The notes: generated by a model from the sequence alone, not told the origin. A stretch of 64,000 nucleotides of DNA from Escherichia phage 241 (OR924452); one strand, 5' to 3'; counted from the stretch's first letter, positions 44,388 to 64,000 are shown. Program-made: numbers and translations.

Positions 44388-45077
44388 ATGAAACGTTTAA
44401 TCATCGGGGTTGTGCTGGCTGGTCTGGCACTTCCTGCCACCGCCAAGCTGAACTCCACAGGTGAAAAACTGTGGTCTGATCTTTCCTACTGTGCTGGGTT
44501 CTCCCAGGCGGTCGCTATCGACAAGTCCGGTTCCATAGAGAATTTTGCTGAACTTTGGAACACGGGTAACGTCTCCACTGCTGTTGTTAATGCTGGGATT
44601 GAGTTCAACCGTTACAAACAGGGAGCCTACAACTTGAAAGGCTACCTGAATGACGATGAATTTAACCGAGGAGGCATGGAGGCTGGCGATCTCATCATGA
44701 CTGGCCGTATGGGTACACAAGGCCGTATGACTGTAAGGCAATGCCGTTCTCTCCCCTCTCCGGCATTACAGAAGGGTGTGCAAATCGGGCGTCGACATCT
44801 GGATCTGATTAATGATGGCAACCAATGCATCAAGGTGTTTGAATATAGTGCCGACCAAGAATCAGATCGACGTTTGAAAAAGGAATGGCGGACACGTGCC
44901 CTTGGATTGAGAGCATGGCTGGTGGAAAATGATCATTATTATGAAGACCGTGTTCAGAATGGTTTGAAAGATCTTTCCACTAATTTGTCTGTCAATCTTG
45001 ATGATCCCAGGCTTGCCCGTGAACTCAAGCAAACAAGAATTGACTGTGATAATATGATGAAGGAGAACGAAAGATGA
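44388..45077 (+). CDS. secreted/periplasmic protein (signal peptide)
   Basis: MKRLIIGVVLAGLALPATA signal peptide; AAGGAG RBS; ATG 44388 inside ORF 44271-45077. Confidence 0.5.
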   Translation: MKRLIIGVVLAGLALPATAKLNSTGEKLWSDLSYCAGFSQAVAIDKSGSIENFAELWNTGNVSTAVVNAGIEFNRYKQGAYNLKGYLNDDEFNRGGMEAGDLIMTGRMGTQGRMTVRQCRSLPSPALQKGVQIGRRHLDLINDGNQCIKVFEYSADQESDRRLKKEWRTRALGLRAWLVENDHYYEDRVQNGLKDLSTNLSVNLDDPRLARELKQTRIDCDNMMKENER

Positions 45078-45394
45078 GAAACATAATATTCTTGTTATTC
45101 TTTTCTATGTTGGCATCATTCCAAGTTGTGGCAACTCCGGCTAGCAAATTGAATATGTGTGCGGCGTGGTTGTCTACTTATCAACAATTTCACCCTGATG
45201 ATAAAGATACATCCATCCTTTTATCAGATTATGAAGGTGAGTTGAAACGCCTTGATCTCTACAGCGTGGATCAAATAGAGAATGCTTTGGATTTGCCAAT
45301 GATGGAGTCCGCTGCCGACAATAGCAAACAGACGATCAAAGATCTGACTATGTGTCGGGAAATAGCGACTAATTTCGTTGGAAATCAAAGATAA
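45074..45394 (+). CDS. small secreted protein (signal peptide)
   Basis: MRNIIFLLFFSMLASFQVVA signal peptide; overlaps previous gene by 4 nt. Confidence 0.5.
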   Translation: MRNIIFLLFFSMLASFQVVATPASKLNMCAAWLSTYQQFHPDDKDTSILLSDYEGELKRLDLYSVDQIENALDLPMMESAADNSKQTIKDLTMCREIATNFVGNQR

Positions 45395-48988: not shown

Positions 48989-49016
48989 AGCCGAGGTTAA
49001 TGCCTCGGCTTTTTCG
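48989..49016 (+). terminator. rho-independent terminator
   Basis: AGCCGAGG-TTAATG-CCTCGGCT hairpin followed by TTTT. Confidence 0.7.
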
Positions 49017-49063
49017 TTGTTGGAATTCGGGTAAACTATAACAGAACCCAAAGGAGGAACAAC

Positions 49064-50785
49064 GTGACAGCATTTAATCAATACCGAAAGGCAATTGACG
49101 CCATAGGCCGTAAGGTTCCTATAGAAGAAATACAAAGCCTTGCCAAAAACGAATTTCCATATGACAAGGCGAACCAAGGCCAGATGGAATGTATCGTCGA
49201 AGCCGTTGATGCCTTGGTCAACAAAAAGGTCAAACACGTGATCATTGAAGCCCCAACTGGCGTGGGGAAATCTTTGATTGGGACAACAATTCATAAAGTG
49301 ATTCGCCATTTGGTTTTACAGGCCGATCCTTATGGGCAATTCCGCACGTCTATCAGTACGCCCACCAAAGGTCTACAAGATCAGTATGCTGCTGAAAAGG
49401 CGGTGGCGATAGACATCCTGAAAGGCAAGAAGAACTATCGTTGCCACGTACACCCAGATGTGTATTACAACGCCGTGCAATGCCGTATAGCATGCCGCGA
49501 CGGGCATTGTAGCAAACGCCGTTGTCCTTATGTACAGGCGCGCAATTTATGGACTGATATTTCGTCATTGCGTTGCACTAATGCAGCTATGATGATTGAG
49601 ATGTGCACCACCATCTGTATGAAGCCTGAAAACCGTTCCGATATGCTGATCTTAGACGAGTGTCATAAGATGCCCTCTACGCTCCTAGAGCACACGATAA
49701 TGGAATACAATACAAAGGCTGTGGATGGGCTGCGAACTATCCCCGAAGGGAAGGAGATAGTCTCTATCATTGCCGATATCGTAGAACGCACCAAGGACTA
49801 TGTCTTGGGCAAGTTGTATTCCTTGTCCGGTGAAATGCATTCGATGTTTGAAGACCTCCATCTTAAAGTGGAGTCTTTGTTGGAAGTTCTTGAAGAATTG
49901 GTTGAAGATGACCGCCTGAGTGAAAGCCAGGTGATGAAACTCGCCGACATTATCGATGTACTACACAATCTGAGTGATTATTGTGGTATTATGTCTCAGA
50001 CAAAGGCCAGCACCTTTATCGTACAGGAAAAGGGAGATGACTTTATTCGGTTTAAACCCGTCATGCCTTCTGATGTAAGTGAATTTGGATTGTTCAGGAA
50101 AGCCGATTACCATGTTCATATGTCGGCAACAATCTGCGGAATCGATTCATATGCCCGTTCCTTGGGTATCCGCCAGGGGGATTATCATTCAATACAGATT
50201 GGAAATCCAATCCCAATTGAAAATCGGAAAGTCAACTATATGCCCATCGTTAAGATGACCAACAACATGGGCGATTATGAAATGAAAAGGCTGACGGAAT
50301 ACATTGATGAAATAATCGCATTCCATCCAGGGCAATCTGGCATCATACATACAGTGAGCTATGATCGCGCATTAGCAATACAAAAATTCAGCAAATACCA
50401 GAACTTTATCCATGTGCCACGCACCCGAAAGGCGTTGATGGATATTATGGAAAATGCCTTCAGGACAAAAACACCTTGTGTTATTGCCAGTCCGGCCATG
50501 GAAGAAGGATATGACTTCAAAGGTGATTACAGCCGATTCCAAATACTGATCAAAGTTCCTTACGATTATTTGGGTGATCCATTGATCGCACATATTAATT
50601 CAGTGGATCCGTCTGCGTACTTCCGCAACGCAGTATTGCGCATTGTTCAGATGTGCGGACGTTCGGTCAGGGGTGTGGATGACTGGGCTGCAACATACAT
50701 AATCGATTCTTCCTTTGAATCTCTTATGATGCGCAACCCAGAGTTCTTCCCAACCTGGTTCACCGATGCAGTATTTGAAGTTTAA
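49064..50785 (+). CDS. DinG/XPD-like superfamily 2 helicase with Cys-rich (putative Fe-S) insertion
   Basis: Walker A IIEAPTGVGKS, DEAH-type box LILDECHKM, Cys cluster CHVHPDVYYNAVQCRIACRDGHCSKRRCPY between them; GTG start with AAAGGAGG RBS. Confidence 0.65.
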   Translation: MTAFNQYRKAIDAIGRKVPIEEIQSLAKNEFPYDKANQGQMECIVEAVDALVNKKVKHVIIEAPTGVGKSLIGTTIHKVIRHLVLQADPYGQFRTSISTPTKGLQDQYAAEKAVAIDILKGKKNYRCHVHPDVYYNAVQCRIACRDGHCSKRRCPYVQARNLWTDISSLRCTNAAMMIEMCTTICMKPENRSDMLILDECHKMPSTLLEHTIMEYNTKAVDGLRTIPEGKEIVSIIADIVERTKDYVLGKLYSLSGEMHSMFEDLHLKVESLLEVLEELVEDDRLSESQVMKLADIIDVLHNLSDYCGIMSQTKASTFIVQEKGDDFIRFKPVMPSDVSEFGLFRKADYHVHMSATICGIDSYARSLGIRQGDYHSIQIGNPIPIENRKVNYMPIVKMTNNMGDYEMKRLTEYIDEIIAFHPGQSGIIHTVSYDRALAIQKFSKYQNFIHVPRTRKALMDIMENAFRTKTPCVIASPAMEEGYDFKGDYSRFQILIKVPYDYLGDPLIAHINSVDPSAYFRNAVLRIVQMCGRSVRGVDDWAATYIIDSSFESLMMRNPEFFPTWFTDAVFEV

Positions 50786-51549
50786 TAACCTGCAATAAAC
50801 GATAAATGGCACTTGATATTTGGTTCAAGTGTCGTTATCGTGATGATCATATTATCCACATCTTGGCTGAAAGATATATTTGCTATTGGTTTAGTCTGAA
50901 CGTGGTTGTACAGGCTGTATATCAAATCTTCACCACGGTATCCGACTTTACCATCAGTATCCTGCCAATGGCCTAACGTGGATTCATGAGCATGTACTCG
51001 GAATTCTATCATATGGAACAATGCTTTTGGGATTGTTTTCAGTATGCTGGTTCCGACAACAGGGATATCAATAGCAGAGTCGTTGGAATTGCCCTCATAT
51101 ACTGACGCCCAACCAAATGTTGGATCTCCCCCCGCTACTGGAGTTCTCTTCCAGTATTGGAATTCCGGATTTCCAGCAGCATTCTTTTGTAGAAGGATAA
51201 CTTCACCGCCTTCAAAATTAGAAGTGTCTATATCATCACGTGCTAATAAATCAGCTGGAGAACCAATAAATTTCCAGGTTTCGCGATCTAAAATAGACTT
51301 ATAATAATCGGTGAATACGTTACTGTCGTCAGCTGCGTTGATTGCGTCTTTAAGACCTTCACCTGTGACCATCTCATTGAGTTTTAGCCACATGTTTTTG
51401 ACAGCTGACGCAGCTGCGACTTGACCTTCAGTCCCACCCGCCGTGTAGTCATAAACGATGTCCAGCTTTTGTATGGAATCATTTATAGACAAGAGCAAAC
51501 GCTCAATTTCTGGGGCGGTCAGACTGAAACGATATGCGCGTTCTGACAT
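50782..51549 (-). CDS. hypothetical protein (255 aa, minus strand)
   Basis: Opposite-strand ORF between helicase and RNase H genes. Confidence 0.45.
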   Translation of the reverse strand: MSERAYRFSLTAPEIERLLLSINDSIQKLDIVYDYTAGGTEGQVAAASAVKNMWLKLNEMVTGEGLKDAINAADDSNVFTDYYKSILDRETWKFIGSPADLLARDDIDTSNFEGGEVILLQKNAAGNPEFQYWKRTPVAGGDPTFGWASVYEGNSNDSAIDIPVVGTSILKTIPKALFHMIEFRVHAHESTLGHWQDTDGKVGYRGEDLIYSLYNHVQTKPIANISFSQDVDNMIITITTLEPNIKCHLSFIAGY

Positions 51550-51591
51550 GATTCGTTCCTCATCGATAAAACCAGTTTGGGATACTTATAC

Positions 51592-52119
51592 ATGATTGAA
51601 ATATACACTGACGGGGCATCTTCCCCGCAGAAGACACAAGCCGCAGGTTGGGCATTTGCTATCAGTCCAATCACTGGAGAGCAATGGAAAGTGTTTTATG
51701 GGTATTTACCCCCACCGTCAACGAATAATATCGCTGAGTTGCTTGGGGTTATAAATGCCTTGAAGATTCTATGGAAATTCTCTAATTGCGGGGAACGCTG
51801 TATTCCCTCAGCCCGTATTATATCCGACAGCCAATATGTTATCAATAGTGTTTTGGAGTGGCGTAGAAAATGGGAATATGAAGGGATGCCGCCTAAGAAC
51901 ACAGAACTCCTACTCGAATTGTTCAATTATTATGACAAAGTTTGTTCAATTTGTGAACTTGAATTAAAATGGGTGAAAGGTCATGCGGGGAATATCGGCA
52001 ACGAAATCGCAGATCAGTGGAGCGTCAGAGCCAAAGAAAATAGCTCGATGGTTCTTGAAAATAATCGTTTTCTGGTCAGAAAGGTTGTTGGTTCTTTCAA
52101 TGAATTCATTGGTATTTGA
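51592..52119 (+). CDS. ribonuclease H (RNase HI family)
   Basis: IYTDGAS...GWAF...NNIAEL...ISDSQYVIN...KGHAGNIGNEIADQWS match RNase HI catalytic blocks; ATG 51592. Confidence 0.8.
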   Translation: MIEIYTDGASSPQKTQAAGWAFAISPITGEQWKVFYGYLPPPSTNNIAELLGVINALKILWKFSNCGERCIPSARIISDSQYVINSVLEWRRKWEYEGMPPKNTELLLELFNYYDKVCSICELELKWVKGHAGNIGNEIADQWSVRAKENSSMVLENNRFLVRKVVGSFNEFIGI

Positions 52120-52130
52120 GGATTATCACG

Positions 52131-52901
52131 ATGGGTATGAATTTTGTAGACAGGGGTGATAACGTCACCAAATATTTCACTGACGAAGATAATGATCGAG
52201 TTGTGGGGATATTGCGTGATTGGATCCCTGCTCGTAAAAAGGCATTAGCCGAAGGAACACCCCTACCAAGAATCCCCAATTACGTGGCCATGAATGTTCA
52301 GATGATAATCAAGAATATGAGTATGCGCTACAACTACCGTGATTATCCATATCGTGAAGACATGGTGAGTGAAGCGGTTGTGAACATCCTTCGTTACCTT
52401 CACACCTTTGACGTTAGCCATATCGGCAAGAAAGGAAAGATCAACTTCTTCTCTTGGGTGACTATGTGTGCCGATCGATCATTCGCCAAGAAACTCACGA
52501 GTGAAGAAGAACACAACTACATTAAATTGCGTTCCTTTGAAGAAGCAGGTGGGTTCGCAGCTTTATCGGATGACCCAGACTTCCAACAACAAACCTTCGT
52601 TGATAGCACTGGGATAACGATGGACTTTCGTGAACGCATCGGTAATTTCGAAAATAAGAAAGAAGCCCAGCGTGAAAAGGAACGCCAAAAGCAAACGGCT
52701 ATCAAAGAAGAGGAAAAGAATAAGAAAATCCCTCGCGGTATACTTCAATGTCTTACGAAGAGTGAAAATACCATTACCGCTGACGCCGAAGATAATTCAG
52801 ATAATGACTTCGGCTCTACTCAATTTAGTCTTGAAGATATAATGGACAGCCCCACATTGTTAGCCGAATCAGTTGGAGAAAAGAATAATGGCGATTGCTA
52901 A
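52131..52901 (+). CDS. late-transcription sigma factor, T4 gp55-like
   Basis: ILRDW, NILRYLHTFD and NFFSWVTMCADRSFAKKL parallel T4 gp55 IIDWKTEL, IKGLHNFD, AYITQACFNAFVQRIKKE; upstream of genes 47/46 as in T4. Confidence 0.6.
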   Translation: MGMNFVDRGDNVTKYFTDEDNDRVVGILRDWIPARKKALAEGTPLPRIPNYVAMNVQMIIKNMSMRYNYRDYPYREDMVSEAVVNILRYLHTFDVSHIGKKGKINFFSWVTMCADRSFAKKLTSEEEHNYIKLRSFEEAGGFAALSDDPDFQQQTFVDSTGITMDFRERIGNFENKKEAQREKERQKQTAIKEEEKNKKIPRGILQCLTKSENTITADAEDNSDNDFGSTQFSLEDIMDSPTLLAESVGEKNNGDC

Positions 52902-54003
52902 AATTGGCGATTTACACATCGGGAGCCGCAATGGTTCCCGTTACGTTCGTGAATTCATAAAGAATTATCTCATCAACTATTTTATTCCCGAATTGGTAGA
53001 TGCAGACATTAAAGAAGTTTGGCAATTCGGCGACACATTTGATGTTCGTAAATTTATGTACGGGCGCGACAAAGATTGGTTGAAAGATGAACTGACTCCA
53101 GCCCTGAGAAAGGCGGGTATCAAATGGAATGGCATCGTTGGAAACCATGATATCACCTTAGAAGAATCTAACCGTATCAACTGGCCATCCTATCTGAATG
53201 AATTAGCGCCAGACGTCTATCATTATTACAGTGAACCCACTGAAGTTTCGATTGAAGGCGAAAAGGTATTGCTTCTCCCATGGATCAATAAAGAGAATTA
53301 TGATGCATCTGTTAAAGCGATACAAGATACAGACGCCAAGTACTGTTTTGCGCATCTGGAGTTGGCAGGGTTCAAAATGTACCAGTCCTCTGTATGTGAT
53401 AAAGGTCAGATCGACGTGGCGCTCCTTTCCAAGTTCGAACGCGTGGATACCGGACATTTCCATACCCGTTCGATGGAAGGTAACATTCAGTATATTGGGA
53501 CTCCTTATCACCTTACCTGGGAAGACCATAAAGACGGGACGAACCGAGGATTCTATGTAGACGACATGAAAGGCGGGGAATTGTTTATTCCCAACAACGA
53601 GCAACAAACGTTGTTCCGATTCATCGAATACGACTACACCCAAATGTCTTCCGACACCGAAGGAAACTGGATTGACCCAGATTGGCTAAACAATGGTTTG
53701 GGTATTGAAGGGCAAATCGTTAAAGTGATTGTACAGAACCGCGATAATGCCAAGCATTATGAAAAGTTCTGCGACGCGCTGAAGCGCTGTAAATGCATCG
53801 ATTACAACTTTATAGATCGGACTATCACAGTCTCGTCTGAGAAGGTAGAAGTCACTGAAGAGATGGTGGCGACTGATGCTGTGGAAGTCCTGAAGAAAGA
53901 TATCCGCGCCGCCAATAATATCCAGCGCCCTGAAAATGTTTGCAAATTAGCAGAACAATTCTATAATGCTGCCCAACAACGCCTGAACACATTGGATGCA
54001 TAA
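52888..54003 (+). CDS. recombination endonuclease subunit, T4 gp47-like (Mre11/SbcD family)
   Basis: N-terminal IAKIGDLHIG phosphoesterase motif, GNHD and GHFH motifs; synteny with gp46. Confidence 0.8.
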   Translation: MAIAKIGDLHIGSRNGSRYVREFIKNYLINYFIPELVDADIKEVWQFGDTFDVRKFMYGRDKDWLKDELTPALRKAGIKWNGIVGNHDITLEESNRINWPSYLNELAPDVYHYYSEPTEVSIEGEKVLLLPWINKENYDASVKAIQDTDAKYCFAHLELAGFKMYQSSVCDKGQIDVALLSKFERVDTGHFHTRSMEGNIQYIGTPYHLTWEDHKDGTNRGFYVDDMKGGELFIPNNEQQTLFRFIEYDYTQMSSDTEGNWIDPDWLNNGLGIEGQIVKVIVQNRDNAKHYEKFCDALKRCKCIDYNFIDRTITVSSEKVEVTEEMVATDAVEVLKKDIRAANNIQRPENVCKLAEQFYNAAQQRLNTLDA

Positions 54004-54005
54004 TA

Positions 54006-56339
54006 ATGAGCAACGTAGATCTATTATCAAAATTTGGTTCGCTGTTGAAAGAAGCGGACGCTCCTGTTATTGTTGAAGCACCATTTGAAATCCGTGGGGA
54101 TATTACTCACAAACTGACTTTCCATCGTGGTCGCGCTAAGAACTTTCGTTCTATCGGTAATGAATTCATGGAAATTGATTACCAACGCAATTCGGCAACC
54201 TTGGTTACATCCGATGACAATGGCGCTGGTAAATCCACCATGCTTGTCTGGCTGCTGTTCTTCGTTCTGTACAACGACACGTACAGCAAGAAAGAGAAGA
54301 AAGCCGGATTGGTTAACTCTCAAAACAAAAAGGAATGCGTGGGTGAAGTTGAGTTCTCAACTCGCGGTAGTGAATGGAAAGTCCGTCGGGGTATCAAACC
54401 AGATTTTGTAGAAGTTTATCAGATGGTGGAAGGAGAGTGGAAGCAAGTCGTGAACGATGCGGCCAAAGCTGATATGAACAAGTACATCGTGAATCTCATC
54501 GGCGTGGACCAGAAGATGTTCGAGAACTCTTTGGTTTTGGGCAAGGAGAAGTTTATTCCTTTCACAGAGATGTATACCGCTGACCGCCGCGCCATGGTTG
54601 AAACAATTTGGGACTTGGGTTTCTTCAGCCTGATGAATGAGGATGTTAAAGCATCTATCAAGGCGGTAACGAACGAACTCACGACGGTCACCAATGATTA
54701 CGCCTTTCATGATGTGAATCTAAAAGGCCAGCAAGCGCAGTTGGAACAGATCAATAATTCCAATGCGATGATTCAGCAACAATCTGCGGATATCCTTGTC
54801 CAAGAGAAGGAACGTCTGAATAGCCTGAATTCAGATATCGGCGCAGTGCAGGAACAACTGACAGAGTCCCGTGCTCAAGACTCTAAATTGGAATCAGAAT
54901 TATCAGAAGTCCGTAATCGCCTGAACGCTGAAATGAAGGTGGATATCGATGCCATCAATGACGAGTATTTTGCCAAAATTCAAGCGGTTCAGGATGAGGC
55001 TGATACCAAGGCTGAAGACTATGAACGTATCGAGGTGTCTGATGGCGAACGTTCATTACAAGAAATTCGGGAGAGAATGGCGGTAGTCGCGGAACGTAAA
55101 AATGATCTGGTCAGCCAACGGAATGCTAACCTGGATGAACTGAACAAAGCATTAGCGCGGCGTCAGCAGGGTGAGAACTTCCGTATCAAATTCGTAACAG
55201 AAATGGAAGGACATGAATCTGCCATCAAACGTTTCCACGATATGGGCACTTGCCCTACGTGTACGCAATTAGTGTCGGACGATACCAAATCACGCATTGA
55301 AAGTCAATATTATCCGCAAATCAGTGAACTGACTGACAAGATTCTTCAGGTTGACACAGCCCTAGAAGAAGTTAATTCCCTGATTGAGAATTACAACGTC
55401 AAAGATTCAGAATTATCTTCTCAGATTTCGGTTGTTGACAAAGAACTGGATGCTTTGCGCAATGAAATCCGAGAAGCGGAATCAGCGATTGCTGCATTAA
55501 AACGCGACATCCAAGGATTCTATGATGTGGCAGCTGTTGAGAAAACATCTTTACAGCGGGAACAACAGTCCAAAATTAACGATATCCTCAAGGCCGTAGA
55601 CACCCGTTACGAAGATATCACGACGTCAATCCGTCAAGCGCGTGAGCAGCTCTCTAAGAGCATCAACGACACGACTGATAAACTCACCAGCCTGAAATCA
55701 CGCCGTGCCCCTCTGGAGGCATCCATTGCCGATTTAGAGCGTAAATTGGCGGTTAAGCCGACACCAACTGACGCCCTGGAAGAAGAGATCGCTCGCATCA
55801 CGGCGTTAATGGAAGATCTGAATGCGCGGCGCGTAGAGTTGGATGAGAAATTGCAAGACCTGAACCATCTTCTGTTCTTCCTAAAAGATGATCAGACCAA
55901 GGCTCGAATTATCAGCCTGTATTTGCCTTTCCTCAATAGTAAAATAAACGAGTATCTTGAAGCACTCAATATGTTCTTGGATATTGCTGTTGATGACACA
56001 TTTGAAATCACCATGAGCGCTGCAGGCCGTAAAGGGCAAAGCATCTTCTCATTATCTACTGGTCAGCGTAGTCGCCTGAACCTGGCTGTGACATTAGCTT
56101 TACGCGATGTTGCAAACCTCAAGGCGTCAGTGCAATGTAACCTGTTTGTGTTAGATGAAATCCTTGAGAACATGAGTGAGCGCGGCGTACAAGAATCGGT
56201 TGAGATGCTGAAGCATAAATTTGGCGGGAACAATCTGTTCGTTATCAGTCAACGCGAGCAGGAATTCCAAGAGTATTTCCAACACAACATCCGTTATGGT
56301 CTGCGTAATGGTATGACTGAAGTGATTAAGAAGGATTGA
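54006..56339 (+). CDS. recombination ATPase, T4 gp46-like (Rad50/SbcC family)
   Basis: Walker A DDNGAGKST, long central coiled-coil, C-terminal FVLDE Walker B. Confidence 0.85.
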   Translation: MSNVDLLSKFGSLLKEADAPVIVEAPFEIRGDITHKLTFHRGRAKNFRSIGNEFMEIDYQRNSATLVTSDDNGAGKSTMLVWLLFFVLYNDTYSKKEKKAGLVNSQNKKECVGEVEFSTRGSEWKVRRGIKPDFVEVYQMVEGEWKQVVNDAAKADMNKYIVNLIGVDQKMFENSLVLGKEKFIPFTEMYTADRRAMVETIWDLGFFSLMNEDVKASIKAVTNELTTVTNDYAFHDVNLKGQQAQLEQINNSNAMIQQQSADILVQEKERLNSLNSDIGAVQEQLTESRAQDSKLESELSEVRNRLNAEMKVDIDAINDEYFAKIQAVQDEADTKAEDYERIEVSDGERSLQEIRERMAVVAERKNDLVSQRNANLDELNKALARRQQGENFRIKFVTEMEGHESAIKRFHDMGTCPTCTQLVSDDTKSRIESQYYPQISELTDKILQVDTALEEVNSLIENYNVKDSELSSQISVVDKELDALRNEIREAESAIAALKRDIQGFYDVAAVEKTSLQREQQSKINDILKAVDTRYEDITTSIRQAREQLSKSINDTTDKLTSLKSRRAPLEASIADLERKLAVKPTPTDALEEEIARITALMEDLNARRVELDEKLQDLNHLLFFLKDDQTKARIISLYLPFLNSKINEYLEALNMFLDIAVDDTFEITMSAAGRKGQSIFSLSTGQRSRLNLAVTLALRDVANLKASVQCNLFVLDEILENMSERGVQESVEMLKHKFGGNNLFVISQREQEFQEYFQHNIRYGLRNGMTEVIKKD

Positions 56340-56341
56340 TC

Positions 56342-56650
56342 ATGGGAAGTCTGATCCGTGTATCAAAGAAATCCAAGGGCGCTGAAAAGCGCCTGTACAA
56401 AGCCGTTCGCCTGATGATCCTCTACAAGTACACTGCTGAGAATCAATGCTGGCGCAAGAAGACGCGTGTCCGCTACCAAGTCGCCCAGTACCAGATGAAG
56501 CAACGCGTTATCCGTTTGGCGATGAAGATCGCAGGAAATTACAAGTATTGGACATGTGAGGCTGTGGGCAGTCGCAAGGCAATTGACCTTGTCGAAGACC
56601 GGAATCTGTCTTTCCTGATCAATCTATCGGATTATGAGGACATGTCGTGA
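56342..56650 (+). CDS. hypothetical basic protein (103 aa)
   Basis: ATG 56342 with AAGGA RBS. Confidence 0.45.
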   Translation: MGSLIRVSKKSKGAEKRLYKAVRLMILYKYTAENQCWRKKTRVRYQVAQYQMKQRVIRLAMKIAGNYKYWTCEAVGSRKAIDLVEDRNLSFLINLSDYEDMS

Positions 56651-56976
56651 AAGTCGTCCACTTCAAGAAGGAGCCATATGACGTCTACATTGGGCGGCCT
56701 GGCAAATGGGGTAATGACTTCGAAGTCAAAGACCATGGGCGCGGCGTTTGTATCGAGTTATTCGAAGACGATTTGTATGTGCGTCTGATTGAAGGGGAAA
56801 TCACTGAGGATGAACTCCTTGAACTGGACGGAAAGATTCTAGGGTGCTGGTGTAAACCACGCCCCTGCCACGGGGATGTTTACGTCAAAGTGATCGGTCG
56901 TATTAAACTATTCCGTAAGTTGGGTAAATCTTTTACTGAATATTTGAGACAAACATATGTCAGAAGAGAAAGATGA
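56647..56976 (+). CDS. DUF4326-like protein
   Basis: VYIGRPGKWGN and GCWCKPRPCHGDV match the DUF4326 signature; GTG start overlapping previous stop. Confidence 0.5.
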   Translation: MKVVHFKKEPYDVYIGRPGKWGNDFEVKDHGRGVCIELFEDDLYVRLIEGEITEDELLELDGKILGCWCKPRPCHGDVYVKVIGRIKLFRKLGKSFTEYLRQTYVRRER

Positions 56977-57241
56977 AATACAGATTGCTTGTGATATCGC
57001 TGTGGAATTATGGAATCAGCGAAATAAACATCATCAGGTAGCATTGACACCAAAACGTTACCTAGAGCAAGGTGGGTTGATCGTTGTTGACGCCGTCTTG
57101 GGTTTCAACAAGTACACAGATATGCAAATCCTCCAAGGGGATTTCATAGTGGCATCAAAATCAGCATGGGACGATCCTATGGAGTTTGTCTACGGCTGGT
57201 TAGAGTGTATTGAGGAATCATACCATCTGATCTACGAATAA
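56957..57241 (+). CDS. hypothetical protein (94 aa)
   Basis: ORF followed by hairpin. Confidence 0.45.
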   Translation: MSEEKDEIQIACDIAVELWNQRNKHHQVALTPKRYLEQGGLIVVDAVLGFNKYTDMQILQGDFIVASKSAWDDPMEFVYGWLECIEESYHLIYE

Positions 57242-57245
57242 GGTG

Positions 57246-57270
57246 AAGGGCACTAAATATCAAGTGCCCT
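57246..57270 (+). terminator. hairpin terminator enclosing a late-promoter-like motif
   Basis: AGGGCAC-TAAATATCAA-GTGCCCT followed by TTATCTTTT. Confidence 0.5.
57253..57260 (+). promoter_or_regulatory. late-promoter-like motif CTAAATAT
   Basis: Lies in the loop of the hairpin, about 75 nt upstream of ATG 57338. Confidence 0.4.
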
Positions 57271-57337
57271 TTATCTTTTAACCCTGTCAGGAGGCTCAAT
57301 CGAGCTGCAAGTCGACAAACACATAAGGAACGCCATC

Positions 57338-57955
57338 ATGACGATGACAACGTTGAAGGCCATGGCCTTGTCCGTGACCTTTACCATTGCCAGCGGGAGT
57401 GTGCACGCTTCCCAAAGTACCACCCAATGTGATTACGAATTTTCTGATCAGCAACTTTCAACTATGGCCACTGCCTATCACATAGGCAAACAGCAAGACC
57501 TTGGTTTCACCCTAGCCGCGATATCATGGAGGGAAAGCCGCGCCGGAGAAGATGTGGTATCCATGCGGAATAACCTGAAATCGGCTAATATGGGGGCATT
57601 CCAAAATCGAGTCCAAACCGTTGGGAAACGGGAGGGATGCAAAACACAGAAGTGTTACGCCAACGTGGCGATTAAATTGCTGGTCAATCAAGAGTACGCA
57701 GCCAATGCAGCCCTTGATGAAATGAATTTCTGGCTTGGGTATCATAACCAAAACATCCGCAAATCGCTCTCCTCTTACAATGCCGGTTTCAGTCGTAACC
57801 AAAAATCCAATTCATACGCTGCTGATGTCGTGAAGAAGGCTAAATATCTTCAACGATGTGTGTCTTTCAAAGGCATGGCAATAAACCCGAAGGTCGACCC
57901 AGGAGTGATCGCCATGAATAAGCGCACGATTGAGAAACTCAAGAGGACCCGATAA
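57338..57955 (+). CDS. lytic transglycosylase (SLT domain) with N-terminal signal sequence; endolysin candidate
   Basis: Signal-like MTMTTLKAMALSVTFTIASGSVHA; SLT motifs WRESRAG (catalytic Glu-Ser), SANMGAFQ, SSYNAGF. Confidence 0.65.
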   Translation: MTMTTLKAMALSVTFTIASGSVHASQSTTQCDYEFSDQQLSTMATAYHIGKQQDLGFTLAAISWRESRAGEDVVSMRNNLKSANMGAFQNRVQTVGKREGCKTQKCYANVAIKLLVNQEYAANAALDEMNFWLGYHNQNIRKSLSSYNAGFSRNQKSNSYAADVVKKAKYLQRCVSFKGMAINPKVDPGVIAMNKRTIEKLKRTR

Positions 57956-58593
57956 TGAATATCACTCCATCTCAGACCGGATACGAGCACTTAATGGTGT
58001 TTATTGCGATTCAGGGGGCAAAAGAAGGCATCATCAGTTCTGAATATTCTGGAACGATGCGCCTGGCTGATTATGTTGCTCCCGAAGCGTTTATCAAGAA
58101 ATGTGTCGACGCATGGTGCCTTTATGCTATCGGCACGTATCCTACTCCTCCGGCAGGTGAGCTACTGTTTACCGTTCCGACCCCAGCCGCTGGCGACACA
58201 GACGCGATCTTTGCTGATATGTTGGCCAAAGGTTATCTGGCATATGATAGTGCTCACAATGTCTATGACTTCTCGGCGTTGAATCGTATCTTCGGATACA
58301 CCATAACATCCGAAGCCAATATTCCCGACTATGGAATTCTGGCATGGGGTATTGACGGTCTCGGCGCAACATATGCGTCTTCTGATGTTGGTCCTGTATT
58401 GATTGACACAGGTGTGACAATGGAGCAATACATGTCACAATTCCCTCAGCATAATGTTACCGGAAGCGACATCATTATTGTCTATCCTGGTTCTAATGCG
58501 TTGTCCCGCCTGGTGGACGGCTGGAAGCCTCAGCTGAAGGACATCGTTGCTGGAATCAGATTTCACATCCCTGTCGTCAATCCCACACCTTAA
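57955..58593 (+). CDS. hypothetical protein (212 aa)
   Basis: ATG overlaps previous stop. Confidence 0.5.
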   Translation: MNITPSQTGYEHLMVFIAIQGAKEGIISSEYSGTMRLADYVAPEAFIKKCVDAWCLYAIGTYPTPPAGELLFTVPTPAAGDTDAIFADMLAKGYLAYDSAHNVYDFSALNRIFGYTITSEANIPDYGILAWGIDGLGATYASSDVGPVLIDTGVTMEQYMSQFPQHNVTGSDIIIVYPGSNALSRLVDGWKPQLKDIVAGIRFHIPVVNPTP

Positions 58594-58620
58594 ATTATTC
58601 AATAAAAGGGGCAAACGCCC

Positions 58621-58649
58621 CTTTACTTCTTCAATAACCCACGTATAAT
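58621..58649 (+). promoter_or_regulatory. sigma70-like early promoter (-35 CTTTAC, -10 TATAAT, 17-nt spacer)
   Basis: CTTTACTTCTTCAATAACCCACGTATAAT following a GGGGC-AAAC-GCCCC hairpin. Confidence 0.5.
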
Positions 58650-58697
58650 TCTAAACATAAGCAGTACGACACCAACTTGAAAAGCAGGAACTATATC

Positions 58698-59066
58698 ATG
58701 ACCAAAACTGAATTGAACAACATTCTGAACGTTGCTGGGTACAAGAATATTCTTCGTGGGAACAACAAAATCGCGCGTGACCGTAGCAACAAAATCATCA
58801 AGGGGTTTCCCCTGTGTAAAACTGGTCCGCTCGATATCAGCAACCCGTCCAAGCGCTTGTTTAAAGACTTATTGCGTGAACTCGGCACTAAAGGCCTGGT
58901 GCTAGATAAAAAGGATGACCTGGTTGACTTTGGCATCGCGGTTATGAAGATTGCCAAATTCAAAATAACTCTGTGCGTACAGACAATTCAGACATATGAC
59001 TACTCTGAAGGCCGTGACCCGAATTACGAAACAAAATATGTCAACGTAAGGATTGAAGGGTTATAA
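58698..59066 (+). CDS. hypothetical protein (122 aa)
   Basis: CAGGAACTATATC-ATG context; ORF track start 58677 is further upstream. Confidence 0.45.
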   Translation: MTKTELNNILNVAGYKNILRGNNKIARDRSNKIIKGFPLCKTGPLDISNPSKRLFKDLLRELGTKGLVLDKKDDLVDFGIAVMKIAKFKITLCVQTIQTYDYSEGRDPNYETKYVNVRIEGL

Positions 59067-59147
59067 TACGAATATGCGGGGGCTTGATGCCCCTTTCTTT
59101 TCGCTAATTAAGGAAAACCGCACCGATTTATTATCAGGAGAATTACA

Positions 59148-61532
59148 ATGGCCATCCAATCTTTCTTAAATTTCCTTGACGAGTCCAAACAATTGGACGA
59201 AGCGTTTAACTCCGCTCCATACGAATTGACTTTCGGCAAGAAAAATGCTGGTGACATTTTCTTCACGTTCGTAGACGAAGATGAAAAAGAATTCCGCATC
59301 CAATTTTATACCCCGCAGGGGCTGGGCAAGAACGTTCGTCAGGTCTTCATAGGCCAGAAACGTGGTTCAACCTATCCAGACGCAATCGGTCGTTTCAAAA
59401 ACCCAATGCGTGTCATCGCATCCATGATCGAAGCGACTAAACAATTCATGGCGACACCGCTGGGTAAAACCATTGATGGGTTTGCGATTAACTTCTCCAA
59501 GAAAGCTCTAGAACGCGGAACGACGTTACTCCCAAAAATTATTCGTCAATCTGGTCTGAAGCAGAAACTCAACGTCATGGATCTGACTTATACCCCAATC
59601 CCTGACCGTGCCTTCGTATGGGTTGTACGCAAAGGCAAGGATCCTGCTCAGGTATTCGATGGTCCGAAAATGAAAGGCGTGACTTGGGACGACCCAGACA
59701 AAGTCGGTGACGTTCCTGACCAGGCTGCTCGTGACGCCGCACTACAAGGTGACATGGATGATTTGAGCCAATCCATAAATGCCGATTCTCGCTGGATTCT
59801 GACCAAAGCTGATCATACTCAGCCTATGCTGGTCTGGTCTGGTAAAGAACGTGGGCGGACTATTACCGCCAATATCGCACCTCACGCGAATGAACCTGGT
59901 GTGTATGCTGGTAGTATCATGAACGAGAAACGGATCCGCGCTCAATCCCCAGACGCTATTGTACGCCAACTGGGATTACCGCAGATCCCTGTGAATATTC
60001 TGAATGATTTCACCAAGCAGTCGTCCATCTTCTGGAAAGAGATGACGGGGGATTCTGGAAAAATAGACATGCAGACTTTGCCAAAAACAGGATCTGTGGA
60101 TGACTTACGAAATCAGGGTTATATTGCTCGCCTTCTGGGGATTGTAGACACATATGCTCCACAACAGGTCGGTATGTATGCAGGTGAGAAACTAACACGA
60201 ATCGGCGCGGGCAAATATCGTACTTCGGGTGGTCTGGACATTCAGGTTTATTTCTGGGGAATTGTCAACGGAAAACTTTCTGTAGAAGTGGTTTCTGATT
60301 TATCTGGCAATGAACAGCTGATGCTGGAAGGCGACGTGAAAAACGCTGCTTTTGAAATCGTCAGTGCGATATCCCGTGCTGCTGATTCTCAGTTCAAAGG
60401 TGAAGTGGAATGTCGTGTTGTTCCAATCAACGGTGCCCCATACCCGATTCAAAAGGTTTCCCGTTCCCAGGGTTATTCTTATGTCGATTGTATTTCGTTT
60501 ACCTTGAAGATCGCCGATGCATTGTTAAATCGTTTTACTCTGGGTAAGGCAGTCAAACTCGATCTGATAAAAGAGTTCCCTCGAACGACGTTTATTGTTC
60601 GTTATGACTGGCGCAGCAAAGATACTCTGATGGTCCAGTCTTCTGATGGGAAGACTATCTTCGGCGAAATCAACACAAATTCCAGTGATAACGCTGTCAT
60701 CACTGCGAACCTGAAAGCCCCAAGCAATGCGAAGATATTTGGTGAAACCGTTCATGGGTTCTCTGTGGCTTGGGACTTCCAGTTCCCTGCGGGTAGCCAG
60801 CTGCAAGCCGCACGGTTCGTTACGAACGTGACTTACGACTTCGATCGTAATAAGGCCAACATCACGACCATGCTGACCGAAAATGGCCGAAATGTAGTCA
60901 ACAGCAGCGGATATGACATTCAGTTATCTGTCAAGTCTGTGCAAGATGCGTTGAATGAGACTTCACAACGCCTGAAAGACGCTGCGGCTCAATTGAGCCA
61001 TCTCAGTTCATCAAACTATAACCCGAACAAGCTGTTTCTGAATGATATCACCGTCAGTAAGTTTGGTGCAATTATGTTCCAAGACAAAGATCTGGCGCAG
61101 TCTAGAAACCGCACTGCAGTCATTGATGCCCTGGCTCGCGCCAAAGACCAAGCTGCTGGGGGCAAGAACAGCAGCGATCTGGCCACATATTCCGATTCCA
61201 TCCGCAACAGTGCTCCCAACGGACGAGATCTTGATTGGCAGGTATACGTGACCAATAGCGGCGCAGTTCTTAACGTCGATTGGAGTATCACCTTCCGTCG
61301 CAACACAACCGAAGGTGCATATCGTGAGTTCAAAGATCAGATCAACCGTGCTAACCAGTATTTACAAACGGTATACAACGATGCGAAATCGAAGGGATAT
61401 AACCCGACAGAGCCAAACCTGATGACTCTGGCTCGTGCCCAGCAGTCCGACGAATGGGCGGCAAGTAACGGGGAAAGCGCATACAGTGAGTATGAGCAGT
61501 CTCTGGGCGGCAATCTTCAGATTAAGATCTGA
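59148..61532 (+). CDS. large hypothetical protein (794 aa); candidate virion-packaged internal protein
   Basis: AGGAG RBS; amphipathic acidic N-terminus MAIQSFLNFLDESKQLDE; shares SPDAIVRQLGLPQIPVNILNDF module with downstream gene. Confidence 0.5.
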   Translation: MAIQSFLNFLDESKQLDEAFNSAPYELTFGKKNAGDIFFTFVDEDEKEFRIQFYTPQGLGKNVRQVFIGQKRGSTYPDAIGRFKNPMRVIASMIEATKQFMATPLGKTIDGFAINFSKKALERGTTLLPKIIRQSGLKQKLNVMDLTYTPIPDRAFVWVVRKGKDPAQVFDGPKMKGVTWDDPDKVGDVPDQAARDAALQGDMDDLSQSINADSRWILTKADHTQPMLVWSGKERGRTITANIAPHANEPGVYAGSIMNEKRIRAQSPDAIVRQLGLPQIPVNILNDFTKQSSIFWKEMTGDSGKIDMQTLPKTGSVDDLRNQGYIARLLGIVDTYAPQQVGMYAGEKLTRIGAGKYRTSGGLDIQVYFWGIVNGKLSVEVVSDLSGNEQLMLEGDVKNAAFEIVSAISRAADSQFKGEVECRVVPINGAPYPIQKVSRSQGYSYVDCISFTLKIADALLNRFTLGKAVKLDLIKEFPRTTFIVRYDWRSKDTLMVQSSDGKTIFGEINTNSSDNAVITANLKAPSNAKIFGETVHGFSVAWDFQFPAGSQLQAARFVTNVTYDFDRNKANITTMLTENGRNVVNSSGYDIQLSVKSVQDALNETSQRLKDAAAQLSHLSSSNYNPNKLFLNDITVSKFGAIMFQDKDLAQSRNRTAVIDALARAKDQAAGGKNSSDLATYSDSIRNSAPNGRDLDWQVYVTNSGAVLNVDWSITFRRNTTEGAYREFKDQINRANQYLQTVYNDAKSKGYNPTEPNLMTLARAQQSDEWAASNGESAYSEYEQSLGGNLQIKI

Positions 61533-61540
61533 TCATCAAG

Positions 61541-61552
61541 CCCCTTCGGGGG
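61541..61552 (+). terminator. short hairpin
   Basis: CCCC-TTCG-GGGG immediately before the late-promoter-like motif. Confidence 0.35.
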
Positions 61553-61560
61553 CTAAATAC
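61553..61560 (+). promoter_or_regulatory. late-promoter-like motif CTAAATAC
   Basis: About 20 nt upstream of ATG 61582. Confidence 0.45.
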
Positions 61561-61581
61561 ATCAAAATCCTTAGGAGATCC

Positions 61582-62130
61582 ATGATGAAACCGTTTATCG
61601 AATATTTTAAAGAACAAGCCCAGCAGCCGCAAACTCATGGCGGTATACAAGGCAAAAGTGTAACCATCACTAAACAAGCCGATGGAACACAATGGTGCTC
61701 CGGCGCTACCGTGACCCAGATCACTCCTGACAATCAGGCCGATGTCTATAATCTGGAATTGACTAATGGCAACACCATCAAAGTGAAGCTAACTCCAGAC
61801 CAGACCCACGGCATTACCCAAGGCCAAGAAGTTGTTGCCGTCCATGATGGTTTTGAATTTTTCTTCGGCAAGTCAGCTGACAAAGGTCAGGTTACTGAAG
61901 CGGAAGGCTGGCGTTTCGTCGGTGACCGTGGCGCTCATATTCTGATGTATGACGCAAAAGTTGGCGGTGCCTCCACTATCCTTCGCAGTCCAACAGATCG
62001 AACCAAATTTGTTGGTGGTCTCATCAACGGTAGAAAAATTTTGGGTAATTCCCCAGAAGAACTGGCGGCAAAATTAGGTCTTCCAAAAATTCCTGATAAT
62101 TTATTAAAATCGTTTTTTGGTAAAAAGTGA
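61582..62130 (+). CDS. hypothetical protein (182 aa) paralogous over a C-terminal module to the 794-aa protein
   Basis: ATG 61582 with AGGAGA RBS preferred over non-ATG start 61435; C-terminal SPEELAAKLGLPKIPDNLLKSFF. Confidence 0.5.
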   Translation: MMKPFIEYFKEQAQQPQTHGGIQGKSVTITKQADGTQWCSGATVTQITPDNQADVYNLELTNGNTIKVKLTPDQTHGITQGQEVVAVHDGFEFFFGKSADKGQVTEAEGWRFVGDRGAHILMYDAKVGGASTILRSPTDRTKFVGGLINGRKILGNSPEELAAKLGLPKIPDNLLKSFFGKK

Positions 62131-62148
62131 TTATAAAATACAATCCCC

Positions 62149-62156
62149 CTAAATAC
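62149..62156 (+). promoter_or_regulatory. late-promoter-like motif CTAAATAC inside hairpin
   Basis: CCCCCT-AAATACA-GGGGG hairpin with motif in the loop, 30 nt upstream of ATG 62187. Confidence 0.4.
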
Positions 62157-62186
62157 AGGGGGATTTTCTTTTTAGGGGTAAATATC

Positions 62187-62540
62187 ATGGTCAATGCGAG
62201 TATATTCATCAACCGTGGACTGCTTGCTATAGCCCACTCCCATGCCCTCCACTTCGTTACAACGTCCTATGCCAAGCACAAGGCACTCGGGGAGTTCTAC
62301 GGGGAACTGGAGGACTTGCTGGATACCTTCACAGAGGCATATATCGGCGCGGGTGGTGTATATGTCCCAGGGTTTGAGAATATTAAACTGTACAACCCAG
62401 ATCCTATATCGTATGTCAACAGTGTTGTTATCGACGTAAACGGAATTTATGGTCAATGCGACAGCCATCTTCAAAATACGCTTGATGAAATCAAAACTTT
62501 GTGCTATCAAACGATTTACAAACTGAAGCAATTGTCCTAA
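62187..62540 (+). CDS. hypothetical protein (118 aa)
   Basis: ATG 62187 downstream of motif. Confidence 0.45.
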   Translation: MVNASIFINRGLLAIAHSHALHFVTTSYAKHKALGEFYGELEDLLDTFTEAYIGAGGVYVPGFENIKLYNPDPISYVNSVVIDVNGIYGQCDSHLQNTLDEIKTLCYQTIYKLKQLS

Positions 62541-62603
62541 CTCAATAGGATCATCGTCAGGTTATAATTTTGCCCATTCGTCATCAATAGGATACAGATA
62601 ACA

Positions 62604-63221
62604 ATGGGCAAAATCTTTATACCTTCTCACTCAGAAGGTTGTCAAATCGCTGCAAAATTTCTACACAAACAAATGAATTGTGGTGCTGTGTTCGTAGAAC
62701 CAAATTCATTCGATAATCGTGAATCCCCTGACGCCATCGGGTTCAGACCTGGGGGTTGTTCTATATTAATGGAAGTTAAAGTCTCCCGCGCCGACTTCCT
62801 GACAGACAAAAAGAAACCTCATCGCATGAATCCTTCCATAGGCATGGGAGCATATCGTTTCTATGTTTGCCCAGCAGATGTTATTAAAATTGAAGACCTC
62901 CCTCCCAAATGGGGTTTGTTGTACTTCACCCCTAGAAAATCTTTGAAGCCCGTTCACGTTCCGAATATGCAATATTCCTCTTTGTCTTCACCGGAACATT
63001 ATGCATCATATTTGTCTAAATCTTTGGGCAAAAGAAGTCCTACAGATATCCCTCCTTATCTATTAGGGTACAAACAGATGCTGGAAGAATTTGCCCACTT
63101 TGATCGCAATCAGGTTGCGGAACAAAATATTCTGTATGGGGCTTGGCGACAGCTTTGCATAGCTCAAAGTCGCGGGGTGGATTATAATGTGACAGAAGTA
63201 TTCCAAAGGCCAAATATCTGA
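62604..63221 (+). CDS. hypothetical protein (205 aa), possible PD-(D/E)xK nuclease fold
   Basis: PDAIGF...ILMEVKVS resembles a D...ExK core; weak. Confidence 0.4.
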   Translation: MGKIFIPSHSEGCQIAAKFLHKQMNCGAVFVEPNSFDNRESPDAIGFRPGGCSILMEVKVSRADFLTDKKKPHRMNPSIGMGAYRFYVCPADVIKIEDLPPKWGLLYFTPRKSLKPVHVPNMQYSSLSSPEHYASYLSKSLGKRSPTDIPPYLLGYKQMLEEFAHFDRNQVAEQNILYGAWRQLCIAQSRGVDYNVTEVFQRPNI

Positions 63222-64000
63222 TGAAATTCTTAGACGAACAATACATCAATTTTCTCGCCCCCCGACTTGATAAATTCAGTTGGGAACGTGTTGGCGCTGT
63301 CGCCAAATTTCGTTGCCCATTATGTGGGGATTCTAAGAAGAGTGCCAACAAGCGTCGTGGTCACTTCTTTTATGATCGTGATGACGATGTGTTTCGTTTC
63401 AAGTGCCACAACTGTAATGAAATGAGCGGTTGGGCGTTTGAATTCTGGTTGAAGAAGTTTGACGAGCGTCTGTATAATGAATACAACCTTGAAAAATTCA
63501 GAATCATGGGGGATACCAGTTCCCGCCCGTTACAAAAACTCAAACCACTACAGCGCCTGACCCAGACAGCACGTATCGGTTCTCAGGTCGCCAAACGGGA
63601 TGAAGAGCACCTTGGGAATATGATACGCCTTGATCTTCTTGACCGTGATCATATCGCCCGTCGTTATGTTGAAGGCAGGGGAATGCCGGAGAGCACGTTA
63701 TCTTTGTTGTATTACAGCAGGAATTTTCGTCAAGATCTTCTGAGTTTCGAAACGGATGTTGAGAAGCAGAAGAAGATACCCGAAGATGAGCGGCTGGTAA
63801 TCCCATTCTGGACCCAAGACGGGCGCATGAAGATAGTTCAGGGGCGCGCATTCGGCGATAACCTTCCTGATGGGGTATTACGGTATGCCACTGTCAAGCC
63901 TAAGAACGAAGACACTAAAATCTACGGGGAAGAGCGCATCATTTGGAACAAAACAAAGTTGGTAGTAGAAGGTCCAATTGATAGCTTGTTTCTACCTAAT
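63221..64000 (+). CDS. DNA primase, T4 gp61-like (3' end beyond window)
   Basis: Zinc-binding FRCPLCGDSKKSANKRRGHFFY...CHNCN and KIYGEERI...VVEGPIDSLF match T4 gp61 FRCPVCGDSK and KIYGVERV...VLEGPIDSLF; frame open to window end. Confidence 0.85.
   Translation, partial: MKFLDEQYINFLAPRLDKFSWERVGAVAKFRCPLCGDSKKSANKRRGHFFYDRDDDVFRFKCHNCNEMSGWAFEFWLKKFDERLYNEYNLEKFRIMGDTSSRPLQKLKPLQRLTQTARIGSQVAKRDEEHLGNMIRLDLLDRDHIARRYVEGRGMPESTLSLLYYSRNFRQDLLSFETDVEKQKKIPEDERLVIPFWTQDGRMKIVQGRAFGDNLPDGVLRYATVKPKNEDTKIYGEERIIWNKTKLVVEGPIDSLFLPN

Follow-up and report, generated by a model that had tools for sequence, protein, structure and literature searches.

A Vs.1-type gene of a kuttervirus probably encodes an exported accessory murein-cleaving enzyme and not the endolysin

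A gene of Escherichia phage 241 (OR924452) encodes a protein with SLT-type motifs and a signal-like N-terminus and has no obvious holin or spanin gene beside it, raising the question of whether it is the lysis enzyme of the phage, a wall hydrolase carried by the virion or an enzyme with another role. We analysed a 64,000-nt stretch of this genome, here called the window. An initial annotation had offered two roles for the gene, a SAR-type endolysin or a virion-associated cell-wall hydrolase. Its description of an SLT-fold protein with a signal sequence, encoded behind a late-type motif, holds up, and the catalytic Glu is conserved, but neither role is the best fit: the gene probably encodes a Vs.1-type, Sec-exported periplasmic accessory murein-cleaving enzyme that is not the lysis enzyme.

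The open reading frame is a genuine gene. It begins with ATG, 7 nt downstream of an AAGGAA Shine-Dalgarno sequence, and encodes 205 aa (the SLT protein; Table 1). The source phage is a Vi01/CBA120-like Kuttervirus (Ackermannviridae), and the 2.7 kb around the gene are 98–99% identical to many Kuttervirus genomes, among them those of Escherichia phage CBA6, the Salmonella phages FrontPhageNews, Sajous1 and sal1, and ECML-4. On its 5' side lie genes for a T4-like RNase H, the gp55 late sigma factor and the gp47/gp46 recombination nuclease. On its 3' side, the start of the DUF7270 gene overlaps the stop codon of the SLT gene (TAATG). We regard the DUF7270 gene as genomic context, and its position does not imply joint action with the SLT protein. 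The run of genes at 57955–62540, which the DUF7270 gene opens, encodes products that are particle-associated in relatives.

Table 1 Features at and around the SLT gene, in window coordinates
Feature	Position	Strand	Remarks
Nine start-proximal CTAAATA copies	2967, 9482, 13732, 18513, 19731, 28688, 57253, 61553, 62149	+	
Terminator-like hairpin with T-tract	57240–57279	+	15-bp stem; closes the upstream gp46/47–DUF4326 block
CTAAATA, late-promoter-like core	57253–57259	+	In the hairpin loop
Ultra-conserved 5' leader, non-coding	57270–57337	+	68 nt; AGGAGG 57290–57295, Shine-Dalgarno AAGGAA 57325–57330
Vs.1-family (PHROG 600) CDS, SLT-fold murein glycosidase, predicted secreted	57338–57955	+	205 aa
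Predicted Sec signal peptide	57338–57409	+	Residues 1–24, cleavage VHA/SQ; hydropathy, −3/−1 rule
Putative catalytic Glu66-Ser67 codons	57533–57538	+	Glu 144/144, Ser 138/144; aligned to the catalytic ES of EtgA
DUF7270 gene (particle-gene run)	57955–58593	+	212 aa; Pfam DUF7270, 1.4e-124; virion protein in relatives
794-aa protein gene (particle-gene run)	59148–61532		196 spectra in Sajous1
182-aa protein gene (particle-gene run)	61582–62130		Weak TOBE-like match
DUF5856 protein gene (particle-gene run)	62187–62540		Ferritin-like by Phyre2 in the Sajous1 paper

Judged by sequence comparison, the SLT protein is the kuttervirus ortholog of T4 Vs.1. It matched PHROG 600 at 2.3e-59 (residues 7–179 on profile positions 4–176 of 178), and T4-type Vs.1 matched the same profile (phrog_600) at 2.1e-68; the window protein, RB3 Vs.1 and proteins from Felixounavirus and Vibrio phages all aligned to it at full length (1e-46 to 1e-68). 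A direct BLASTP comparison with RB3 Vs.1 gave an E value of 3e-20 and 32% identity over about 170 residues. When 50,697 phage records were searched with tblastn, homologs were found in 2,104. Outside the Ackermannviridae, the matches were to vs.1 of T4-type phages, directly adjoining regB; to a Felixounavirus gene annotated 'putative lysin' and located between rIIB and pnk; and to genes of Vibrio, Aeromonas, Acinetobacter and Klebsiella phages. Metagenomes added 612 family clusters at 50% identity (from 1.84 billion representative proteins), whose members carry no recorded names. No plasmid homologs were found, and a pattern scan of genome contigs confirmed no bacterial relatives, the wider alignment being too divergent to serve as a query. 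Besides profile family and size class, the kuttervirus and T4 proteins share an N-terminal signal peptide and the ES, G-x-F-Q, S-Y-N-x-G and Y motifs, whereas the T4 protein lacks the four paired cysteines and the 30-residue basic C-terminal extension of its kuttervirus counterpart. Their settings also differ, the kuttervirus gene following gp46/47 and preceding virion genes and T4 vs.1 lying between regB and vs.

The gene call as such is already known. Proteins identical to the 205-aa product are in the databases under the labels 'RegB', 'SLT domain protein', 'lysozyme' and 'hypothetical', and PHROG 600 itself is labelled 'unknown function'. A marginal SLT similarity of T4 vs.1 was remarked upon in 2006 in a comparative genomics study (PMC1524935), and a 2022 paper (PMC9409062) named PHROG 600 a hallmark of Kuttervirus and gave a lysozyme-like prediction for it. 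On Vs.1 function the searchable literature yielded the 2006 remark alone, and we found in it no biochemical or genetic test of any family member.

What favours a site-specific RNA endonuclease of the RegB type is the name itself, which many GenBank records give to this protein (Maynard, LIMEstone1, FrontPhageNews, Mooltan and others). The SLT protein has no match to Pfam REGB_T4 (PF10715) at E ≤ 0.1, whereas the genuine RegB of RB3 scores 225 bits; its homolog in T4-type genomes is vs.1, the neighbour of regB; and an SLT fold with a signal peptide is incompatible with a cytoplasmic RNase. Sequence and fold refute the identity, and we consider the chance that the protein is a RegB nuclease to be vanishingly small. 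Clan CL0037 is the lysozyme clan, so a RegB name attached to it has apparently slipped over from the gene adjoining vs.1. Such an entry, 'T4 RegB endoribonuclease family (CL0037)', stands in the PhiSH19 paper's own table, which thereby puts the match in that clan. By this reckoning, the 'RegB' label is an annotation error that has spread through many Ackermannviridae records.

The SLT motifs that had been read from the sequence are present: E66-S67 in AISWRESRAGE, G86-A-F-Q89-N and S146-Y-N-A-G150, together with Y160. To place them in the family, we aligned 144 representatives (the 142 best cluster representatives, the window protein and RB3 Vs.1). E66, Y147, G150 and Y160 were 100% conserved in this alignment, followed by S67 (96%, 138/144), G70 and G86 (95–96%; 95% for G86) and N148 (87%). 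The initial annotation would have been undermined by a catalytic Glu that is not conserved; Glu66 is invariant (144/144), and that objection therefore falls away. The SLT protein scored marginally below the gathering cut-off of Pfam SLT (PF01464; 20.9 versus 21.3 bits), with the T4-type ortholog above it (25.1 bits). An AlphaFold2 model (pLDDT 82, pTM 0.77), in which disorder is confined to residues 1–28, has a goose-lysozyme-like alpha-helical fold, and every significant Foldseek match in the PDB was a lytic transglycosylase or lysozyme-like enzyme.

A search of the PDB with the family profile returned EtgA as the top match (3.6e-4). EtgA groups with IagB, IpgF and VirB1 among the specialised lytic transglycosylases of secretion systems, in which a second catalytic Asp lies in the beta-hairpin; its D60 is this second acidic residue (one PDB entry is named 'EtgA D60N mutant'). 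The SLT gene differs from this type in lying in a phage genome and not in a secretion-system cluster, in having no plasmid homologs and in belonging to a family in which the second acidic residue of EtgA is not conserved. Compared with the family-1 enzymes Slt70 and MltC/D/E/F, the SLT protein is much smaller, has neither accessory domains nor a lipoprotein anchor and shows borderline sequence similarity, as the Pfam score indicates. No second conserved acid was found between Glu66 and motif II, residues 68–86 being acidic in at most 48% of family members. This absence hints that a single-carboxylate transglycosylase may fit better than a two-carboxylate lysozyme, and from the motifs and fold we infer catalytic activity and transglycosylase chemistry.

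The N-terminal segment had been described as a hydrophobic signal or SAR-like sequence; our results favour the signal sequence and speak against the SAR anchor. The protein begins with MTMTTLK, continues with AMALSVTFTIASGSV and then reads VHA/SQ, the slash marking the predicted cleavage site, in a call based on a heuristic n/h/c layout and the −3/−1 rule. The core is about 15 residues long and weakly hydrophobic, with a mean hydropathy of 1.5 over 15 residues and 1.12 over 19; the reference SAR segments of P1 Lyz and P21 R averaged 2.07 and 2.11 over 19 residues. Gly, Ala, Ser and Thr make up 59% of it, a composition also typical of SAR domains. In every Ackermannviridae homolog the core is followed by a small-x-small site (VHA, VYA, VHS, VNA, ATA, ANA or AAA), even though the core itself varies, and textbook signal peptides are found in T4-type Vs.1 (…AISMMAHS/SE) and in the Felixounavirus (…AHLSYA/VD) and Vibrio-phage (…SWAAQS/EE) proteins. 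A signal-like core is present in at least 122 of the 144 representatives, most of the others looking like mis-called starts. By these heuristics, the SLT protein would be exported and cleaved.

The cysteines follow a paired pattern. C31 and C174 are both present in 72 of the 144 sequences, both missing from 59 and discordant in 13, and C101 and C106 are both present in 11, both missing from 131 and discordant in 2, although these co-occurrence statistics are inflated by related sequences. Such pairing would give the pattern expected of disulfides in an exported protein, and two disulfides, C31–C174 and C101–C106, probably stabilise the SLT protein. Ackermannviridae proteins also carry the basic C-terminal extension of about 30 residues (175–205; 57860–57952), reading …NKRTIEKLKRTR in the window protein and modelled as two short helices.

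The gene is preceded by a terminator-like hairpin (−22.2 kcal/mol, z = −7.4 against shuffled sequences), and Klebsiella phage Magnus bears the label 'terminator' at the corresponding site. The hairpin loop contains the sequence CTAAATA. This heptamer occurs 11 times in the window, always on the + strand, compared with 6.3 occurrences expected on both strands together, and 9 of the 11 copies lie 20–85 nt before start codons, mostly of genes for particle proteins (neck, sheath, scaffold and others). This strand bias and placement make the label 'late-promoter-like', already given to the motif, a reasonable one, and CTAAATA looks like a putative late-promoter core of this phage. In four lineages, the 794-aa virion gene has a form of the motif (CTAATTA, CTAAGTA or CTAAATA) before it, CTAATTA in the window (at about 59100). 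The T4 late promoter TATAAATA occurs twice in the window, without enrichment, and ATAAATA is not enriched there either. A 2011 paper described ViI-like phages as having a late promoter yet to be identified (PMC3184105).

Two of the CTAAATA copies lie in the loops of terminator-like hairpins, at 57240–57279 and at 62142–62165 (motif at 62149). A transcript that starts in such a loop lacks the 5' arm of the hairpin and would thus escape a terminator that stops upstream transcripts. Another copy (57840–57846) falls inside the SLT gene itself, 115 nt ahead of the DUF7270 start, where the codons specify a conserved K-A-K-Y-L; it might act as an internal late promoter or might simply result from conservation of that protein motif.

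The 68-nt leader of the SLT gene is the most conserved DNA of the compared region (49000–64000). Across it, 270 of 271 Ackermannviridae records were at least 95% identical to an 88-nt query, whereas identity over the 2.7 kb around it fell below 90% in 178 of 272 records. Conserved blocks within the leader lie at 57280–57298, 57303–57319 and 57325–57337. Conservation extends into the first ~90 nt of the coding sequence (57270–57430), which encode the signal peptide. The leader of Magnus (Taipeivirus) is 98.5% identical to that of the window, the leader of LIMEstone1 about 90%, with two single-base indels, and that of a metagenomic relative 88.6%, even though the SLT protein of this relative is only 55% identical. 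Identity over the rest of the coding sequence is 73%, 73% and 57%, respectively, and neighbouring coding DNA goes down to 57–76%. Among sliding 60-mers, the leader ranked at the top against LIMEstone1 (49000–64000) and against Magnus and the related sequence L011 (54000–61500). The element is single-copy and wholly absent from one lineage, and the leader of the 794-aa gene has no comparable conservation.

The leader is putatively a protein-binding translational operator, which is our best guess. Its folding energy is unremarkable (z = +0.63), it has no match in Rfam and, because the sequence hardly varies, it gives no covariation signal; a structured RNA leader gains no support from these results but may still be present. 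An antisense ORF for a 50-aa hydrophobic peptide (57423–57271, − strand) lies exactly over the ultra-conserved stretch. We rejected it as a conserved protein because in LIMEstone1 and L011 it is thrown out of frame by 1-nt indels, which alter its C-terminal half. The same indels break the frame of a possible N-terminal extension from an in-frame CUG behind AGGAGG.

Is the SLT protein, then, the enzyme that lyses the host? The earlier statement that no holin or spanin adjoins the gene is right, since the ORFs found up to about 1.5 kb away in both directions all lack a segment of transmembrane strength. Relatives, on the other hand, have a separate canonical endolysin. In sal1, which is 98.5% identical to the window over the 2.7 kb around the SLT gene, a 264-aa modular protein with PG_binding_1 and Muramidase (former DUF3380) domains is encoded about 8.5 kb 3' of the SLT gene, equivalent to a site roughly 1.8 kb past the window's end. 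LIMEstone1 and FrontPhageNews have this gene under the name endolysin, and it corresponds to the 'endolysin N-acetylmuramidase' in the core-genome listing of Vi01-like phages. The SLT protein and the endolysin are both phage-encoded and target peptidoglycan glycan strands, but the Pfam domains of the endolysin begin at residue 9. T4, for its part, encodes its own full holin/endolysin/spanin set, and established T4 genetics show that its lysis relies on its own endolysin. Transcribed early, T4 vs.1 yields a middle protein (PMC9697503 supplement); as its secretion at that stage brings on no premature lysis, the enzyme is not what triggers lysis. Expression of vs.1 in T4 is thus early to middle, compared with a late-type motif at the kuttervirus gene, and roles may differ between lineages.

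A SAR-type or other holin-independent endolysin would be tethered to the inner membrane in an inactive state and cause lysis once depolarisation frees it. Like the SAR endolysins P1 Lyz and P21 R, whose catalytic domain is T4-lysozyme-like and not of the SLT type, the SLT protein has a muralytic domain after a segment rich in Gly, Ala, Ser and Thr and would be exported by Sec without a holin. The late-type motif before the gene is consistent with this role, as are the 'putative lysin' label of the Felixounavirus orthologs, which lie near spanins, and the lack of an identified holin in ViI-like phages (PMC3184105). The segment is, however, shorter and far less hydrophobic than a SAR domain (1.1 versus 2.1 over 19 residues) and leads into a signal-peptidase-type site that is kept in diverged homologs, and the catalytic Glu lies 40 residues beyond it. 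Together with the canonical endolysin of close relatives and the early-to-middle synthesis of T4 Vs.1 without premature lysis, these features make an endolysin role, as the initial annotation had proposed, quite improbable. The SLT protein is very probably an accessory enzyme and not the main lysis enzyme.

The other proposed role, that of a particle-borne peptidoglycan hydrolase with which the infecting phage breaches the wall, draws on a proteome of CsCl-purified Sajous1 virions, in which the SLT ortholog gp211 is reported with 31 spectra, similar to neck and baseplate proteins. The gene also has the late motif, overlaps the start of a gene for a confirmed virion protein and is followed by genes for four more particle proteins. 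But the published virion proteomes are mirror images of one another: Sajous1 reports gp211 without the DUF7270 protein gp212 (gp211 and gp212 lie at 4828–6083 of L003), and Vi01 and LIMEstone1 list the DUF7270 protein without the SLT protein. In LIMEstone1, ORF085 (DUF7270) is a 'confirmed structural protein' and ORF086 (the SLT ortholog) is not. In the GenBank record of Vi01, 092c, 093c, 094c and 096c are each a 'phage associated protein', a phrase that appears to mark the particle proteins of the Vi01 proteomic study, and Vi01_097c (the SLT ortholog) is labelled merely 'conserved uncharacterised protein'. Because Sajous1 reports gp211 and not its neighbour, a labelling slip by one gene is possible; the pattern suggests either such a mislabel or that a basic protein (pI 9.7) with affinity for the wall was carried over, and the dataset also includes ParB, a ssDNA-binding protein and RIIB. 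The predicted Sec signal peptide and the cysteine pairs speak for a periplasmic location and not for cytoplasmic assembly, a gp5-like baseplate hub already provides the phage with a CHAP domain, and T4 Vs.1 is an early-to-middle protein. Virion association is contradicted by two of the three proteomes, and we consider a particle-borne hydrolase unlikely.

A protein in the periplasm might also be catalytically silent or non-lytic and bind peptidoglycan, for example to sense or modulate superinfection or lysis inhibition. T4 Vs.1 appears early to middle, alongside other periplasmic superinfection proteins (Imm, Sp and RI); CBA120 displays lysis inhibition; and a secreted enzyme would evidently be tolerated by the cell during much of the latent period. 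Against such a silent factor stands the active site: Glu66, Tyr147, Gly150 and Tyr160 are invariant and Ser67 is kept in 138 of 144 diverged representatives, the pattern expected from selection on catalysis. We give this explanation little weight.

The lysis genes of the group gave a further observation. An Rz-like spanin gene (PHROG 3843) is located at 45074–45391 in the window. The gene before it (44388–45074), called 'I-spanin' in relatives, encodes a product with an apparent cleavable signal peptide and not an N-terminal membrane anchor, and its PHROG matches are all of unknown function, whereas the next gene matches the 'Rz-like spanin' PHROG. Spanin assignments in the kuttervirus group may need checking.

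For the accessory enzyme that we favour, the following course can be proposed. Late transcription would probably start at the CTAAATA promoter in the terminator loop and run through the conserved leader. The product would be exported by Sec, lose its 24-residue signal peptide and act in the periplasm as a basic mature protein of about 20 kDa. With a family-1 lytic-transglycosylase/goose-lysozyme fold and a lone catalytic Glu66, it would most likely attack the host sacculus from within the periplasm, cutting the MurNAc-GlcNAc bond with no need of a holin. It would thereby remodel or loosen the wall, and the timing and execution of lysis would fall to the PG_binding_1 + Muramidase endolysin.

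With an accessory role very probable and identical proteins long deposited, there is little out of the ordinary in the gene. It does have practical consequences: the 'RegB endoribonuclease' label of Ackermannviridae records is mistaken and needs replacing, and those who seek endolysins in therapeutic or biocontrol phages should not mistake the SLT gene for the lysis enzyme. More tentatively, and with some doubt on our part, Vs.1-type enzymes could form a third class of phage muralytic enzymes beside holin-gated endolysins and virion lysins, secreted by Sec into the periplasm of the living cell and, in Ackermannviridae, controlled by the leader. If so, the leader may be a new cis-regulatory element, and the sacculus would be remodelled during prolonged or lysis-inhibited infection or primed for abrupt lysis. 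More than 2,000 phage genomes, that of T4 among them, carry the family, and a secreted transglycosylase that infected cells tolerate would be a puzzle for lysis biology, with the near-invariant leader as a concrete handle on how the SLT gene is regulated.
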